This document shows positions 1 to 4,505 of a DNA stretch of 4,505 nt, in pieces. A program made the position numbers and the translations under genes. The notes beneath the pieces were generated by a model. The model saw only the letters and a program-made list of their open reading frames with translations. It had not been told where the DNA came from and did no database searches. This DNA is from a virus (taxonomy: Duplodnaviria; Heunggongvirae; Uroviricota; Caudoviricetes). Position 1 is the stretch's first letter. Each line of letters opens with the position of its first letter. The DNA lies in the IMG/VR virus record IMGVR_UViG_648276643_000012; one strand, 5' to 3'.

Positions 1-420
1 ATGACGGATTATCAGCCATACAGGAAAGGAACTGTGCTTGCCCCAACTGGGCCATGCAATCATCTTCATGTGATTTGTAATGATCCTGTTTATTACCCCG
101 TTAACGATTGTTATTGTGTTTTAGTTGTTAATATTTCTAGTATCAAGGATGGGGTCCCCCACGATCCGTCTTGCGTCTTGAATTCCGGTGATCATCGCTT
201 TATCAAGCATCCAAGTTATGTTGTTTACGCTGAAGCTATAATTTGGCGAGTGGATAACATGGTTAGAAAGCAGCGATCGGGTGAGATTTCTGTTCATGAT
301 GATATGCCAGAAGCTACATTCAATAGAATTCTGGACGGTTTTGATATATCTGATGAAGTTACGCCAAAGAACCTTAAATTTAAAAATAAATATTGCGTAT
401 CATCTATTGATGATGAGTAA
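1..420 (+). CDS. Hypothetical Cys/His-rich protein (139 aa); low-GC accessory gene; the 5' end coincides with the window start so the true start is uncertain
   Basis: ATG at 1 to TAA at 418-420. Product has clustered Cys/His (CNHLHVIC, CYC, HDPSC, HRFIKH) and an acidic C-terminus. Hand-counted GC is about 39% (163/420), versus about 55% in a sampled 60-nt stretch of the minus-strand operon (1561-1620). No family recognised. Upstream region is not in the window. Confidence 0.5.
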   Translation: MTDYQPYRKGTVLAPTGPCNHLHVICNDPVYYPVNDCYCVLVVNISSIKDGVPHDPSCVLNSGDHRFIKHPSYVVYAEAIIWRVDNMVRKQRSGEISVHDDMPEATFNRILDGFDISDEVTPKNLKFKNKYCVSSIDDE

Positions 421-459: not shown

Positions 460-633
460 ATGGAAGATCAAAAAGCAACCAAGCCACAGGTTAAGTTCGA
501 CACAATGAAAGCATTCGCAGGTATGGGTGCTGCTGTTGAAGTTCTGATGAAGGCTGCTCCTAATGCGTTCACTCACGCTACTGTCTCTGGTAAAGAGCTG
601 CAGGGTAAGCTTCGTCGTCGCAAAGCAGCATGA
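460..633 (+). CDS. Small hypothetical protein (57 aa), Ala/Lys-rich with basic tail RRRKAA
   Basis: Found by reading frame 1; it is absent from the ORF track, presumably for length. ATG at 460 is preceded by GGAG (450-453) with a 6-nt spacer; TGA at 631-633. It lies 39 nt downstream of the 1-420 ORF, so probably co-transcribed, and a strong terminator follows about 20 nt downstream. Confidence 0.5.
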   Translation: MEDQKATKPQVKFDTMKAFAGMGAAVEVLMKAAPNAFTHATVSGKELQGKLRRRKAA

Positions 634-652: not shown

Positions 653-683
653 AAAACCCGCCTTTAGGCGGGTTTTTTCTTTA
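653..683. terminator. Rho-independent terminator, probably bidirectional, between convergent transcription units
   Basis: Perfect 10-bp stem AAAACCCGCC / GGCGGGTTTT with a TTTA loop, followed on the + strand by the T-run TTTTTTCTTT. On the - strand the same hairpin is followed by a shorter run (UUUUCAAAAAG). It sits immediately after the stop codons of both the + strand 57-aa ORF and the - strand 681-962 gene. Confidence 0.75.
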
Positions 684-962
684 GTGATGTTCTTTGCCCT
701 TCTGTTTGCCTGTTCTGACCTGTTCCCACTCGATACGTCCTTCTTCTCGTCTTTTGTCTATGTATTCCGCAAGATCCTGAATATTGATGCAACGTTTTGC
801 TTTTTGTGATGTGCCGATGCGATATGTTGGAACGGGCAACTTACAAGCGTTTGCTTTTGCTTCTGCCGTGGCTGGACTCATGCCAAAGTACTTTTGGCTA
901 ACTGCTGAGAGTTCAATGTTAGGGGTATTGAATTCAGCCATCAGTAAAAACAAGGTGTTCAT
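681..962 (-). CDS. PrtN-family / excisionase-like small DNA-binding protein (93 aa); last gene of the minus-strand operon
   Basis: TAA at 681-683. ATG at 962 has GGAG with a 6-nt spacer (GATGGAGAAAATTATG). The track's longer GTG start at 989 and the ATG at 974 lack an SD. N-terminus MNTLFLLMAEF... and overall size resemble PrtN-type (pyocin activator / phage excisionase-like) proteins as I recall them; not searched. Confidence 0.65.
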   Translation of the reverse strand: MNTLFLLMAEFNTPNIELSAVSQKYFGMSPATAEAKANACKLPVPTYRIGTSQKAKRCINIQDLAEYIDKRREEGRIEWEQVRTGKQKGKEHH

Positions 963-998
963 AATTTTCTCCATCAAAACCGGCTGCACCCGGGAAAA

Positions 999-1571
999 TC
1001 ATAATTCTGTGCTGGTGGCAGGAATTAATTTCTGCCAGATAGCGGAAACATATTTTACCTGATGACGGGCATCAGCCAGGGCGTTGTGCCGTTCGCCATC
1101 GAAAGGCATGTCCATTTTGGGGTCGAATCCGATGGAACGCCCAAGCGTAACGATCGTGCGTACATCGTGGTCATTCCAGTACGCCCACGGGCAGATTTGT
1201 CCTGCTCGCTCATAAGCTCCACGTAAAATTACGTTGTCGAAGGTGGCCCCGTTACCCCAGACTTTTAAATATTTCGTATTGTCTGCGTGCCGGTTAATGA
1301 AATGGTTTAGTTCTGAGAGAGCATCGCTGATCGACAAAGTATCATCAATACAGATTGCAGCTCGCGCTTCAGGGCTTTGTTTCAACCACCACAGGATGGT
1401 ATCGCCGTCAGGTGTAGCTCCTTGCTTCATAGCACTGTCTAGGCTGACAACCGCATAGAATTCTTGTCCGATGTCTCCGGTTTCTGGAGTGAAGAACACC
1501 GCGCCAATGGAAACGATCGGTGCATCCTTATTTTTCCCCATCGTCTCAAGGTCGATCATTAAGTTGTTCAT
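999..1571 (-). CDS. DEDDh-type 3'-5' exonuclease (DnaQ-like fold), phage-encoded
   Basis: Motif I D-x-E in MIDLETMG, and motif III H-x4-D in ERHNALADAR. ATG at 1571 overlaps the TGA of the upstream gene (TGATG) with AGGAGG 7 nt upstream. The track's GTG at 1574 would have only a 4-nt spacer. Stop TGA at 999-1001. Confidence 0.8.
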   Translation of the reverse strand: MNNLMIDLETMGKNKDAPIVSIGAVFFTPETGDIGQEFYAVVSLDSAMKQGATPDGDTILWWLKQSPEARAAICIDDTLSISDALSELNHFINRHADNTKYLKVWGNGATFDNVILRGAYERAGQICPWAYWNDHDVRTIVTLGRSIGFDPKMDMPFDGERHNALADARHQVKYVSAIWQKLIPATSTEL

Positions 1572-2137
1572 CACTTCACCTCCTGCGGCGGTTCCGGTAG
1601 CGGCATCCAGTGAGTTGCTTGCTCAATACCATTACCCGGCTTAATCGTTGCTTCTCCTCGCTGGAATGTGCTTCCTGTATAGCGTGCGGAGCATATTAGC
1701 GGTTCAACCAGATAGCTATCGAAATTCACCGAAATAAGCACGTTCTGGCCCTTTTCAGGCATTCGATCACTACAGCTTATCCAACTATCCGGAGTTCCCG
1801 GAGAGTTGCCATTTACATCGAAGTTTGGCTCTGCGTCCTGAACCAGGAGGATGTAACCATTCTTGGCTGTATCAAGTTCTAACGCCTCGGTGACGGTACC
1901 GAAATAGCGATTACCTAAATCAGCATCACAAGTGCTTACATCAATGGAAACCTCCATGCCTTCGATTAATTCTGGCATGTTGTAAGTTTGGCTTACAGGC
2001 TCGACTTCCAGTGAGGCTAACGCAATCCGTGCCAGTTCTTCCGCTTCTTCTGCTGGCAGTACAACGTTGCTACCCGATCCGTATGTTTCGCGCCACTGCT
2101 GGATTGTCAGCAGGCGTTCTTTGGTAATAGTGGTCAT
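1571..2137 (-). CDS. DUF551 domain protein (188 aa) with an unassigned N-terminal region of about 110 aa
   Basis: ATG at 2137 with an AAGGTG SD and 8-nt spacer. C-terminal segment WISCSDRMPEKG...THWMPLPEPP matches the DUF551 signature I recall from lambdoid prophage early regions. Stop TGA at 1571-1573. Confidence 0.75.
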   Translation of the reverse strand: MTTITKERLLTIQQWRETYGSGSNVVLPAEEAEELARIALASLEVEPVSQTYNMPELIEGMEVSIDVSTCDADLGNRYFGTVTEALELDTAKNGYILLVQDAEPNFDVNGNSPGTPDSWISCSDRMPEKGQNVLISVNFDSYLVEPLICSARYTGSTFQRGEATIKPGNGIEQATHWMPLPEPPQEVK

Positions 2138-2329: not shown

Positions 2330-2848
2330 TCACTCTCCTTTAATGCGAATGCCAGCGGCGCGGGAATCATTCCATCGCTTTACTTCTTCACGAATTACGT
2401 CAATGCATTCTTTCGAATCCATTAGGTAATCTTCATCAAAAAGACGTTCCTGTTCGTTTTCTATCGCAACAATGATTGCTTCAACTAACTTTTGTGCCTG
2501 AGAACCACTTTCTAACTCTGCTATGCGCTTACTCCCATCAGAGATAACACCTTCGTAATATTCACGCTGCTCGTTGAGTTTTGATTTTGCTGCCTCCAGT
2601 TCGTCCAGTAGTGCAATCACATCAGGGTCACTGTCATCAACTACTGTTACGCGTGATTTTTCATAATGTTCGTCGGCAAGTGTTCGACCAATTTTGAAAT
2701 CTCCATCACCACCATAACTGGAGCAGGCATAAACGACATGTGCTCCAGATATACGCTGTATTGACATTTCCTCGCCACAAACAGAGCATTCAGGTACTGG
2801 CTTAGGTGAATAACGTTCCCGTAGCGTCTGATAATCAATCTTGCTCAC
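2330..2848 (-). CDS. Hypothetical phage protein (172 aa) with N-terminal CxxC Zn-ribbon-like motif and coiled-coil; possibly ead/Ea22-like
   Basis: GTG at 2848 overlaps the TGA of the methyltransferase gene (GTGA) with AGGAGG 7 nt upstream. Contains PECSVCGEE...H...YACSS (C-x2-C ... H ... C), an acidic stretch (VVDDSDPD) and the segment ALLDELEAAKSKLNEQ, which resembles a motif I associate with ead/Ea22-like proteins (from memory, unverified). Stop TGA at 2330-2332. Confidence 0.7.
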   Translation of the reverse strand: MSKIDYQTLRERYSPKPVPECSVCGEEMSIQRISGAHVVYACSSYGGDGDFKIGRTLADEHYEKSRVTVVDDSDPDVIALLDELEAAKSKLNEQREYYEGVISDGSKRIAELESGSQAQKLVEAIIVAIENEQERLFDEDYLMDSKECIDVIREEVKRWNDSRAAGIRIKGE

Positions 2849-3330
2849 TGGTTGCCCTCCTTCATAAAAATAATCCAGTGGGTCTTGTCACCCTTTCCTG
2901 TTCGTTGACCGATAACAGGCTTTCTGTCGGTCAGTGCCAATATCTGGCGAACAGGTATTTGCGTTTCATTCCATTTAAAAATCAGAACGCCGTATGGCCG
3001 CAACACACGAAAGGCTTCTTTAAATCCCTGCCGCAAATTATCACGCCAGGTATCTTTATTCAGCCGTCCATATTTCTTTCCCATCCAGGCGTTATCACCA
3101 ACACGCTCAAGATGCGGAGGGTCGAATACAACAACCGGAAACGATGCGTCTGCAAATGGTAATGCACGAAAATCTGCTGTCAGGTCAGGGCTAATTATCA
3201 GCCGTCGTCCATCACACAATGTGTGCTCTTCCTTTCTGATATCGCTAAATATCGCCCGGTCGTCATTCTTATCGAACCAGAACATGCGACTGCCACAGCA
3301 CATGTCGAGGATTGTTGCATGTCCAGTCAC
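2845..3330 (-). CDS. Small SAM-dependent DNA methyltransferase (about 161 aa), amino-methyltransferase type with DPPH catalytic motif; probably orphan
   Basis: GTG at 3330 overlaps the TGA of the upstream gene (GTGA) with AGGAGG 6 nt upstream. The track's ATG at 3363 (172 aa) lacks an SD and would overlap the upstream gene by 37 nt. Motif I-like ILDMCCGSRMF (encoded about 3280-3312) is followed some 55 aa later by DPPH (encoded 3112-3123). Stop TGA at 2845-2847. Confidence 0.8.
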   Translation of the reverse strand: MTGHATILDMCCGSRMFWFDKNDDRAIFSDIRKEEHTLCDGRRLIISPDLTADFRALPFADASFPVVVFDPPHLERVGDNAWMGKKYGRLNKDTWRDNLRQGFKEAFRVLRPYGVLIFKWNETQIPVRQILALTDRKPVIGQRTGKGDKTHWIIFMKEGNQ

Positions 3331-3677
3331 TGGCTGCCTCCTTTGCGAATCTGTTCCGCCCATTCTTCAAGGGATTTCTCTGCATATTCACCGGACAGGC
3401 CATCAATTGGATGCGACTCATTAGCTAACTCTTCTTTCGCTGACAGAATCATGCGTGTAACATCGAAAACTTCAGCCAAAGGCTTATTGATAAATCCGTG
3501 ATTGAAAGCAGCAGCAAGACGGCTTGCGGTATAGTTAATACCCTCGTTGCGAGCCTCAGCACGTACTTCATCGAATTTACGCACCAGATACTCAGCATTT
3601 GTTTCATTCACTTTCAGATCTCGTGGTACACATTTCCCGCGAAGAAACCCTTCCATTTCGAAAACATTCATGCGCAT
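3327..3677 (-). CDS. Hypothetical protein (116 aa); YfdS-like by position downstream of the yfdR-like gene
   Basis: ATG at 3677 with GGAG 8 nt upstream; start overlaps the end of the HD gene by 10 nt. TGA at 3327-3329. No recognisable catalytic motif. The assignment rests on synteny with the yfdQ-yfdR-yfdS-yfdT cluster of E. coli K-12 CPS-53/KplE1, not on sequence recall. Confidence 0.7.
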   Translation of the reverse strand: MRMNVFEMEGFLRGKCVPRDLKVNETNAEYLVRKFDEVRAEARNEGINYTASRLAAAFNHGFINKPLAEVFDVTRMILSAKEELANESHPIDGLSGEYAEKSLEEWAEQIRKGGSQ

Positions 3678-4204
3678 TTGCGTAACTCCGATAACTCGTT
3701 AAAACGTTCCATAAACATCCCGTAGGCATGGCCCGGTGCCAGTGGAATCACGTTGAACATCTCTGTTGCCGGGATGCCTTCCAGTACAGGCCAGAAAGAG
3801 CCATCATCAAGCCCGAGATCGCGGCGTTCGGTTGCCAGCATGATGAGATCGGCATATTTCACGGGCGTACTCATAACCGGGGGTAACCCGTATTTCTCAC
3901 GGATTACGGCGTCTATTTTTTCTTCCATCTGTTTATAGTCAGGAAGAAGGCGTTTCAGTGGAGCGGGGATGTCCTGGCAATACGCTTCTGTTGCATCATG
4001 CATTAACGCTTCAAAAGCAAATTCCTGCGGTACCAGCTGGCTGCAAAGAACCACATGTTGGGCGACGCTGTAGAAGTGCGAAAGATGACCGGCAAAGCGA
4101 CAGATATTTGAAAGGGAAACCGCGATATCGTTAATATCGATGTCGTCTTTATTTATCCTGTCATAATAAAAATGCTTACCGGAAAAAGTTTTAATAAATG
4201 ACAT
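3668..4204 (-). CDS. yfdR: HD-domain phosphohydrolase, 5'-deoxynucleotidase YfdR-like (178 aa)
   Basis: HD signature present: H in VAQHVVL, then HD in EALMHDATEAY. The protein as a whole resembles E. coli K-12 CPS-53 prophage YfdR as I recall it. ATG at 4204 is preceded by GGAG with a 6-nt spacer (GTGGAGAACAAAATG). The track's GTG at 4231 is a 9-codon upstream extension without an SD. Stop TGA at 3668-3670. Confidence 0.85.
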   Translation of the reverse strand: MSFIKTFSGKHFYYDRINKDDIDINDIAVSLSNICRFAGHLSHFYSVAQHVVLCSQLVPQEFAFEALMHDATEAYCQDIPAPLKRLLPDYKQMEEKIDAVIREKYGLPPVMSTPVKYADLIMLATERRDLGLDDGSFWPVLEGIPATEMFNVIPLAPGHAYGMFMERFNELSELRKCA

Positions 4205-4297
4205 TTTGTTCTCCACGTATATGCGCTGCACCGCGCTGAATTCTGGTAAAAGGAAGCCCTCACCATCCGGCGATTATTGAGTTAATTACGTTTCCAT

Positions 4298-4319
4298 AAA
4301 TGCCCCCGCAGGGGCATTT
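4298..4319 (-). terminator. Perfect stem-loop in the intergenic gap; possible partial terminator or RNA structural element upstream of the yfdR-like gene
   Basis: Inverted repeat AAATGCCCC-CGCA-GGGGCATTT (9-bp stem, 4-nt loop) at 4298-4319. On the - strand it lies just downstream of the partial ORF stop (4332) and is followed by UUUAUGG, a weak U-tract. The + strand context is not U-rich. Confidence 0.4.
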
Positions 4320-4331
4320 GCAGTAATGAAA

Positions 4332-4505
4332 TCAGGCGGTGAAAGTACCAATAAAGGTTTCTACTTTGCTGTCTTTGAATTTCTCAACAAGCAGATCACG
4401 AAATTCGTTAGCCATTTCTTCCTGCACTGCTTCCAGCTGAATAATGCGCAGAACCAGTACAGGACGATCGCCAGTGATAATGCTGAGGCGTAATTTAAAT
4501 GGACG
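4332..4505 (-). CDS. 3' end of a gene truncated by the window edge (58 codons visible); likely yfdQ-like by synteny
   Basis: The - strand frame is open from 4505 to TGA at 4332-4334, translating to ...[57 protein letters not shown]. It is missing from the ORF track, presumably because the visible part is under the length cutoff. It sits immediately upstream of the yfdR-like gene. Confidence 0.55.

Follow-up and report, generated by a model that had tools for sequence, protein, structure and literature searches.

We find that positions 3327 to 4505 of a 4,505-nucleotide (nt) stretch of phage DNA (IMG/VR record IMGVR_UViG_648276643_000012, Caudoviricetes; the whole stretch is called the window below) carry yfdQ and yfdR, a known prophage module that is very common and is present here in intact form; such an occurrence is ordinary and has been described before. 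The best explanation as a whole, in which we place moderate confidence, is that this segment belongs to a lambdoid prophage of the mEp460/SfV/ST64B type, in which it forms part of the early-left (pL-side) operon and is read from the minus strand. A first-pass annotation, made by a model from the sequence alone, had described the segment as an intact-looking yfdQ-yfdR-yfdS module. That reading is partly right: it stands for yfdQ and yfdR, but the third gene shares only its codons 1 to 36 with yfdS. The finding is real, intact, ordinary, and already known, and in itself it matters little, as the genes are annotated in RefSeq, occur in about half of the complete Escherichia coli genomes, and have a published biochemistry. 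Nor is the presence of yfdQ-yfdR in functional phages new, with mEp460, SfV, and ST64B as examples. The only part that may be new is a recurrent RNA hairpin with a GUGCAG loop, which could matter more than the yfdQ-yfdR finding.

yfdQ and yfdR match their counterparts in E. coli K-12

The chromosome of E. coli BCE049 contains a sequence 100% identical to the window, that of strain 20Ec-P-124 contains a nearly identical one, and 4117 of 5426 complete E. coli genomes match parts of it. Its home in BCE049 is a lambdoid prophage of about 44 kb at dusA, between dusA and zur. The annotated context of this prophage contains an integrase, a CI-type repressor, a Cro-like gene, replication genes, RusA, and Q, and also lysis, terminase, portal, capsid, and lambda-like tail genes as the late genes. 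The prophage looks complete apart from a few pseudogenes, so the setting is that of a phage and not of a decayed cryptic prophage, as the first-pass annotation had proposed. The genes share their strand with the CI-type repressor gene and lie between it and an excisionase gene, and the late genes of the prophage are lambda-like; this is the arrangement of a lambdoid early-left operon. Every gene of the segment is on the minus strand (Table 1). In the stretch from yfdR through the exonuclease gene, neighboring genes overlap by 1 to 10 nt or are separated by 1 to 2 nt, which bears out the claim of a tightly coupled operon with a methyltransferase and an exonuclease.

The window was aligned to the CPS-53 (KpLE1) region of E. 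coli K-12 MG1655. Only the 3′ 174 nt of yfdQ are included in the window. The encoded 57-amino-acid (aa) fragment is identical to residues 218 to 274 of K-12 YfdQ in 56 of 57 positions and belongs to the Pfam family DUF2303 (PF10065), with a score of 43.9 bits against a cutoff of 26.6; a homology search with this fragment returned partial proteins only. RefSeq names the protein "YfdQ family protein" (WP_000081297). In the BCE049 source genome, the complete proteins are 98.9% (YfdQ) and 99.2% (YfdP) identical to those of K-12. YfdR, which also carries the name yfdR in RefSeq and matches phrog_318 at 4e-110, aligns to K-12 YfdR without gaps and with 173 of 178 residues (97%) identical, confirming the strong resemblance noticed earlier. 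The five substitutions are K16R, V23D, A51V, R92Q, and D170E. They stand beside 17 synonymous codon differences, and this mostly synonymous divergence is a purifying-type substitution pattern. The yfdQ-yfdR spacer differs from that of K-12 at 4 of 127 nt.

The HD signature of YfdR is unchanged, and the catalytic residues sought on the alignment (H50, H69-D70, E73, D78, and D119) are all intact. H50, H69-D70, and D119 align to Atu1052 (2gz4), the closest solved structure (E = 4e-14), and H69, D70, E73, and D78 align to YfbR, the dCMP phosphohydrolase of E. coli. The HD signature and the subsequent E/D residues are thus shared with both enzymes, although YfbR has only about 24% identity to YfdR.

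CPS-53 has its genes in the same order, yfdP-yfdQ-yfdR-yfdS-yfdT (YfdP 99%, YfdQ 99%, and YfdR 97% identical), and shows the same 10-nt overlap between yfdR and the next gene. Unlike the prophage of the window, CPS-53 has neither a repressor region nor structural genes.

An AlphaFold2 model of YfdQ reached a predicted local distance difference test score (pLDDT) of 77, and a fold search with it gave no informative structural neighbor. By sequence, YfdQ matches PDB entry 9o7m (E = 4e-44), which consists of 36 identical chains named "YfdQ Protein" and for which we found no paper. The sequence of 9o7m is that of gp38 of Xanthomonas CP2-like phages (locus L076, 3068-3892), in which yfdQ again comes after a yfdP-sized gene at the head of an early operon. 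A role of YfdQ as the phage annealing protein was considered and rejected, since CP2 has an Erf-like annealing protein of its own.

An EaE-type chimera in place of yfdS

The flanks of yfdR had been said to match the K-12 gene order, with yfdQ upstream and yfdS downstream; the upstream half of this statement holds, and the downstream half does not. BLASTP aligned the 116-aa product of the third open reading frame (ORF) with K-12 YfdS over residues 1 to 42 only (37 of 42 identical), the same residues that are covered by phrog_583, the YfdS family. The N-terminal leader, MRMNVFEMEGFLRGKCVPRDLKVNETNAEYLVRKF, is identical to that of YfdS in 36 of 36 residues, with five synonymous nt changes, and the DNA identity ends there. 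This leader is also common to EaE-type proteins, and the members of that family turn variable after the same residue, F35. In K-12 YfdS, a DUF551 domain occupies residues 50 to 117. The 116-aa ORF had no Pfam match and hence has no DUF551 domain, which places it outside the YfdS family.

The remainder of the protein (aa 36 to 116) matches phrog_614 (2e-58), phrog_14548 (2e-51), and also phrog_368, which represent EaE/Ead-type C-termini, and it contains the C-terminal module of about 80 residues that characterizes EaE and Ead/Ea22 proteins. The 6691 homologues of the 116-aa protein bear names such as "Eae protein," "ead/Ea22-like," and "DUF4752," and the matches are 90 to 98% identical over 66 to 71% of the query. 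Most relatives have 160 to 200 aa, with a variable middle part that is missing here (alignment A2). The same short architecture is seen in a 117-aa "Eae protein" (P0016), and Stx2a phages also carry the exact 116-aa type. The AlphaFold2 model of the 116-aa protein had a pLDDT of 48. Judged from these matches, the gene is an EaE-type chimera, in which a YfdS/EaE leader (aa 1 to 36) is joined to an EaE/Ead/"DUF4752" C-terminal module (aa 37 to 116). EaE of phage P22 shares the leader and the 80-residue C-terminal module and is 36% identical to the 116-aa protein over aa 37 to 113. P22 EaE and lambda Ea22-type proteins have, however, a central coiled coil and a variable part that are missing from the 116-aa protein, and a sequence search gave no match of the latter to the solved C-terminal domain of lambda Ea22.

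After codon 36, the two loci are unrelated: K-12 CPS-53 continues with the DUF551 domain and then yfdT, whereas the window continues with the EaE/Ead C-terminal module and then the methyltransferase gene. No YfdT homologue was found in the window. Residues 33 to 42 of K-12 YfdT contain a motif, IALxSLEVEP, which, together with an MTT start, is common to the N-terminus of the DUF551 protein of the window (2030-2137). Because YfdT shares this motif and start with the DUF551 protein, K-12 yfdS and yfdT may consist of rearranged parts of EaE and DUF551 genes.

The conserved unit is yfdP-yfdQ-yfdR

Among the complete E. coli genomes, the segment from the 3′ part of yfdQ to yfdR was present at 80% coverage or more in 2652 of 5426. 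The yfdR-yfdS junction of the K-12 type was found in 2281 of the 5426, and the yfdR junction as in the window in 364. We further collected a species-level sample of 67 YfdQ loci, approximately one per species (a few species have two), with YfdQ proteins 41 to 99% identical. YfdP was encoded directly upstream of YfdQ in 64 of the 67 loci. YfdR followed YfdQ directly in 48 and was found anywhere downstream in 53, and an exonuclease lay further downstream in 27. Other genes of the window and of CPS-53 were much rarer near YfdQ: YfdS was seen in 6 loci, the methyltransferase in 5, YfdT in 4, and the 116-aa type in 3. The evolutionarily stable unit is yfdP-yfdQ-yfdR, not yfdQ-yfdR-yfdS, and the region after yfdR is a mosaic of interchangeable "ea" genes, in which the exonuclease is an optional neighbor and the methyltransferase a rare one.

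The same early-left layout as in the prophage of the window (repressor, yfdP, yfdQ, yfdR, variable "ea" genes, Rv2179c-like exonuclease, and excisionase) is found in mEp460 (gp26-gp35), SfV (orf29-31), and ST64B (sb29-sb37). The isolated phage mEp460 has yfdP, yfdQ, yfdR, a gene for a 120-aa YfdS homologue, ea genes, a DUF551 gene, an exonuclease gene, and an excisionase gene. It differs from the window in this YfdS homologue of the K-12 type and in having no methyltransferase gene, while ST64B differs in its other variable genes and in its YfdR, which is only 68% identical. More distant Morganella and Pseudomonas phages carry YfdQ, an HD hydrolase, a methyltransferase, and a 3′-5′ exonuclease in one early operon. 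In three loci without YfdR (L030, L042, and L075), a distant DEDDh exonuclease gene was observed directly after yfdQ, about 950 nt past the YfdQ start. The slot after yfdP-yfdQ tends to hold a nucleotide- or nucleic-acid-processing enzyme, because the DEDDh exonuclease replaces YfdR there in some loci.

Relatives of YfdR are not confined to this context. In a tblastn sample, they were found in 335 phage records, including records without the yfdP-yfdQ context, and the hosts of these phages include Bacillus, Caulobacter, Vibrio, and Rhizobium, which are distant from one another and differ in their DnaA proteins.

Two aspects of these results should be useful for experiments. The correction of the third gene means that the gene set published for K-12 is missing here, which is useful for testing the K-12 phenotype in a phage, and the conservation of yfdP-yfdQ-yfdR directs experiments to yfdP rather than to yfdS or yfdT.

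Spacer structure and a recurrent GUGCAG hairpin

Both the sequence and the structure of the yfdQ-yfdR spacer are conserved among prophages whose YfdQ proteins are only 55 to 75% identical, as seen in an alignment of 19 species variants (alignment A6) analyzed with RNAalifold and with folds per locus. The copy in the window has a minimum free energy of −42.8 kcal/mol (z = −1.94) and contains three hairpins. A GC-rich, weakly U-tailed hairpin like hairpin 1 was present directly 3′ of the yfdQ stop codon in 39 of 39 distinct spacers inspected by eye, and its stem covaries according to RNAalifold; it may gate read-through from yfdP-yfdQ into yfdR. Hairpin 2 has the form CGCC-N4-GGCG. In hairpin 3, the GUGCAG loop is conserved, while the stems covary between species (CGCG, GCAG/CTGC, GCGCT/AGCGC).

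The GUGCAG hairpin recurs in other places, typically 3 to 9 nt upstream of a (U)GGAGAA Shine-Dalgarno sequence that is followed by a start codon. A canonical copy with the stem CCGG precedes the excisionase gene in the window (Table 1). A further copy precedes the KilA-N gene of the same prophage (locus L001, 23640-23655, plus strand), and two more were found in locus L008 (3462-3475 and 6875-6892). ST64B has the hairpin before both yfdR and xis, and mEp460 has it before xis. We counted hexaloop hairpins in 1.03 Mb of the species-level loci, in which GUGCAG is by far the commonest loop; it has 52 distinct copies, and the median for a loop sequence is 2. GGAG occurs within 22 nt after the hairpin in 41 of these 52 copies, compared with a mean of 0.13 for other loops. 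Over six stem positions in 53 distinct copies, 84.9% of cells pair, and the observed covariation was reached by none of 500 shuffles. The inner three stem pairs were the criterion by which copies were selected, but the fourth and fifth pairs were not, and these are formed in 49 and 41 of the 53 copies, respectively.

Three classes of genes follow the hairpin. Copies before yfdR typically have the stems CGCG, GCAG, and GCGCT; copies before excisionase genes, which belong to at least seven unrelated families (Exc, DUF1233, DUF4224, PrtN, HTH_17, and others), typically have CCGG; and copies before KilA-N/Ant-like genes typically have GCGG. The CCGG variant together with its Shine-Dalgarno sequence was found in at least 120 IMG/VR contigs. 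The hairpin is absent from lambda, and K-12 retains only the yfdR copy. Rfam gave nothing at the spacer or at the GUGCAG hairpins, and no description of the GUGCAG hairpin was found in the literature searched.

Two known roles were considered for the hairpin and rejected. Most copies have no U tract, as an intrinsic terminator would, and no copy lies near pL or pR or has a boxA, as a nut site would. There is nonetheless a likeness to the boxB elements in the N-utilization sites of lambda and P22, which also combine a short GC stem and a conserved loop with free stem sequence and recur several times in early operons. The GUGCAG hairpin differs from boxB in having a hexaloop of another sequence, no boxA, and a position directly before ribosome-binding sites deep in operons. 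A site recognized at the RNA level fits best, because a conserved loop is presented on free, covarying stems and is always oriented toward the ribosome-binding site. The element could alternatively be a conserved junction sequence for the exchange of gene cassettes, and the diverse excisionase families behind one hairpin would agree with this; the covariation of the stem, however, argues for selection on structure.

We tentatively extend this to a joint proposal, which we hold to be possible rather than probable: the GUGCAG hairpin would be the operator of an undescribed post-transcriptional control over yfdR, excisionase, and KilA-N/antirepressor-like genes in a large group of enterobacterial lambdoid prophages, with yfdP-yfdQ as a conserved early pair and YfdQ as a large homo-oligomer. 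Untimely expression of yfdR, excisionase, or KilA-N/antirepressor genes would, on this proposal, harm the lysogen. The factor that recognizes the loop could be a protein or an RNA pairing with the palindromic UGCA core. As a true regulatory site, the hairpin would tie yfdR to the control of excision and antirepressor, and yfdR would belong to a regulon of the lysis-lysogeny commitment.

Possible function of YfdR

The first-pass annotation stated, with reference to the literature, that YfdR binds DnaA and that overexpression of its gene cluster inhibits replication initiation, and this statement is accurate. K-12 YfdR binds domain I of DnaA, with Phe46 important for binding, competes with DiaA and DnaB, and inhibits initiation in vivo and in vitro (PMC4776307, Noguchi and Katayama 2016). 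Multicopy yfdQRS or yfdQRT inhibits initiation, the minimal set being yfdQ and yfdR with either yfdS or yfdT; the inhibition is moderate and depends on multicopy, and deletion of the K-12 genes gives no phenotype (PMC4776307). A role in a propagative ancestor, that is, host takeover, was already proposed there, with SfV orf29-31 named as homologues (PMC4776307). K-12 YfdR is reported to be a weak 5′-deoxynucleotidase (PMC4776307, citing Zimmerman 2008).

For the locus in the window, we favor the following account, to which, taken jointly, we attach the moderate confidence expressed at the outset. Upon induction or infection, the operon would be transcribed from a repressor-controlled leftward promoter, as gene order and strand suggest. 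YfdR is predicted to be a metal-dependent HD phosphohydrolase, and nucleotide hydrolysis early in phage development would be its main selected function, because relatives with a conserved HD signature are widespread among phages whose hosts are unrelated. Binding of DnaA domain I in competition with DnaB and DiaA, as described for the K-12 protein, is a plausible additional, lineage-specific effect that would slow host initiation. Read-through into yfdR is probably reduced or gated by the hairpin that follows yfdQ, and an effect at the RNA level, on yfdR translation or stability, is probable for the GUGCAG hairpin that precedes the yfdR ribosome-binding site.

A number of points weigh against this account. 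The affinity of K-12 YfdR for deoxynucleoside monophosphates (dNMPs) is reported to be much below that of YfbR (PMC4776307, citing Zimmerman 2008), and because of this much lower affinity, the true substrate may be something other than dNMPs. YfdR also falls just under the threshold of the Pfam YfbR-like family (24.8 versus 25.9 bits). Hairpin 1 was not called by the terminator scan, the yfdR copy of the GUGCAG hairpin in the window has a stem of only 3 to 4 bp, and the roles given to promoter, antitermination, and hairpins are ones that we infer. The authors of the K-12 study themselves allow that the phenotype may be an overexpression artifact (PMC4776307).

The host-takeover function suggested in the first-pass annotation has an accurate precedent in K-12, but it was published already. 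It would make the module a device that serves mainly to block chromosomal initiation, with YfdR binding DnaA domain I and aided by YfdQ and the downstream gene. Besides the Phe46-dependent DnaA binding, the DiaA/DnaB competition, and the inhibition of initiation cited above, the identity of 97 to 99% that YfdQ and YfdR share with K-12 speaks for it, and the idea was still cited in 2025 (PMC12122000). We nevertheless consider it rather unlikely as the main function. The effect in K-12 needs yfdS or yfdT, and this locus has yfdS only as a 36-codon piece, with its DUF551 part absent, and has no yfdT. Because the minimal set is not present here, the K-12 phenotype cannot simply be transferred to this locus on the sequence at hand. 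The rarity of YfdS and YfdT alongside YfdQ in the species-level loci, the moderate and multicopy-dependent inhibition, the silent deletion, and the occurrence of HD-conserved YfdR relatives in phages of unrelated hosts point the same way.

A reported low dNMP affinity would also agree with a different reading, in which YfdR, YfdP, and YfdQ act against a host defense or on a noncanonical (signaling or modified) nucleotide, and the weak dNMPase activity is a side reaction. Such a role would suit the early operon position, where several distant phages also have genes for a DNA methyltransferase and a DEDDh exonuclease alongside, as well as a YfdQ that finds no informative fold match yet forms the 36 identical chains of 9o7m. 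The phage dNMP phosphatase Dmp, moreover, interacts with a nucleotide-sensing defense (PMC12265719). The product of this pre-early gene of T5 offers a functional analogy only, being an early phage enzyme that dephosphorylates dNMPs and reshapes the host nucleotide pool. T5 is virulent and degrades host DNA; to our knowledge, no such activity exists in these temperate phages. Homology between Dmp and YfdR is not supported, as no relationship was detectable in the tblastn sample. With this, with no PADLOC model match in its favor and no experimental hint, and with a methyltransferase link in so few of the 67 loci, we regard this reading as improbable. Least credible of all is the view that the genes have no function and are carried along as decaying cargo, as they would be in a cryptic prophage. 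The same genes do sit in the defective CPS-53 of K-12, where their deletion gives no replication phenotype. All ORFs here are intact, however, the codon differences from K-12 are mostly synonymous, order and spacing are kept across 67 species, and the genes are found in plaque-forming phages, so that the conservation data already contradict such a view.

Other features of the window and its prophage

The features of the early-left operon are listed in Table 1.

Table 1. Features of the early-left operon in the window
Feature	Position	Strand	Remarks
yfdQ 3′ end, DUF2303 family	4332..4505	-	Last 57 codons (4505..4335) and stop (4334..4332)
yfdQ-yfdR spacer, 127 nt	4205..4331	-	Three hairpins
Hairpin 1, AAAUGCCCC-UGCG-GGGGCAUUU	4298..4319	-	Right after yfdQ stop; terminator-like, weak U tract
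Hairpin 3, GUGCAG loop	4223..4236	-	8 nt upstream of yfdR GGAG
yfdR, HD-domain 5′-deoxynucleotidase	3668..4204	-	178 aa, intact
Mosaic breakpoint versus K-12	3565..3575		DNA identity ends at about 3570, codon 36 of the 116-aa ORF (pairwise DNA alignment A1)
EaE-type chimera, 116 aa	3327..3677	-	Start overlaps yfdR stop by 10 nt
Small orphan DNA methyltransferase	2845..3330	-	DPPH motif; GTGA overlap with upstream gene
Ead/Ea22-like protein	2330..2848	-	172-aa intact ORF; Pfam Ead_Ea22 3.3e-23
62-aa ORF	Between Ead/Ea22-like gene and DUF551 gene	-	
DUF551-domain protein, 188 aa	1571..2137	-	Pfam DUF551 6.4e-22
Rv2179c-like DEDDh 3′-5′ exonuclease	999..1571	-	Pfam PF16473 2.4e-75
Canonical GUGCAG hairpin, CCGG-GUGCAG-CCGG	980..993	-	5 nt past exonuclease stop, 8 nt before excisionase GGAG
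PrtN-family excisionase-like gene	681..962	-	End of early-left operon; Pfam PyocinActivator 4.2e-23, phrog_1300 excisionase 8.4e-40

A search of NCBIfam returned no significant family for any of the proteins. The methyltransferase matches MTase_II of PADLOC (9e-73) and phrog_954 (1.5e-87), and RefSeq names it a class I SAM-dependent methyltransferase. The Ead/Ea22-like gene is annotated in RefSeq as two partial pseudogenes, yet it is one uninterrupted ORF; the pseudogene call is probably an annotation artifact, arising from a mosaic protein whose length falls short of the family model.

Beyond the excisionase gene, a 57-aa ORF (window 460-633, plus strand) is followed by a strong hairpin (652-677) with T runs on both sides, a structure that resembles a bidirectional terminator and faces the end of the excisionase gene. 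A 139-aa ORF at the beginning of the window (1-420, plus strand, with L001 11432-12004; 128 aa in RefSeq) has phrog_19071 as its sole family match. It directly follows the gene for a Panacea/SocA-domain protein, at the prophage end next to zur, and the two could be an antitoxin-toxin pair of the PanA type, carried as cargo. Elsewhere in the same prophage (L001 26187-27361), 3′ of the Q antiterminator gene, a subtilase-family AB5 toxin B subunit and a scabin-related ADP-ribosyltransferase are encoded as an ArtAB-like toxin pair, at the position that the Shiga toxin (Stx) genes occupy in Stx phages.

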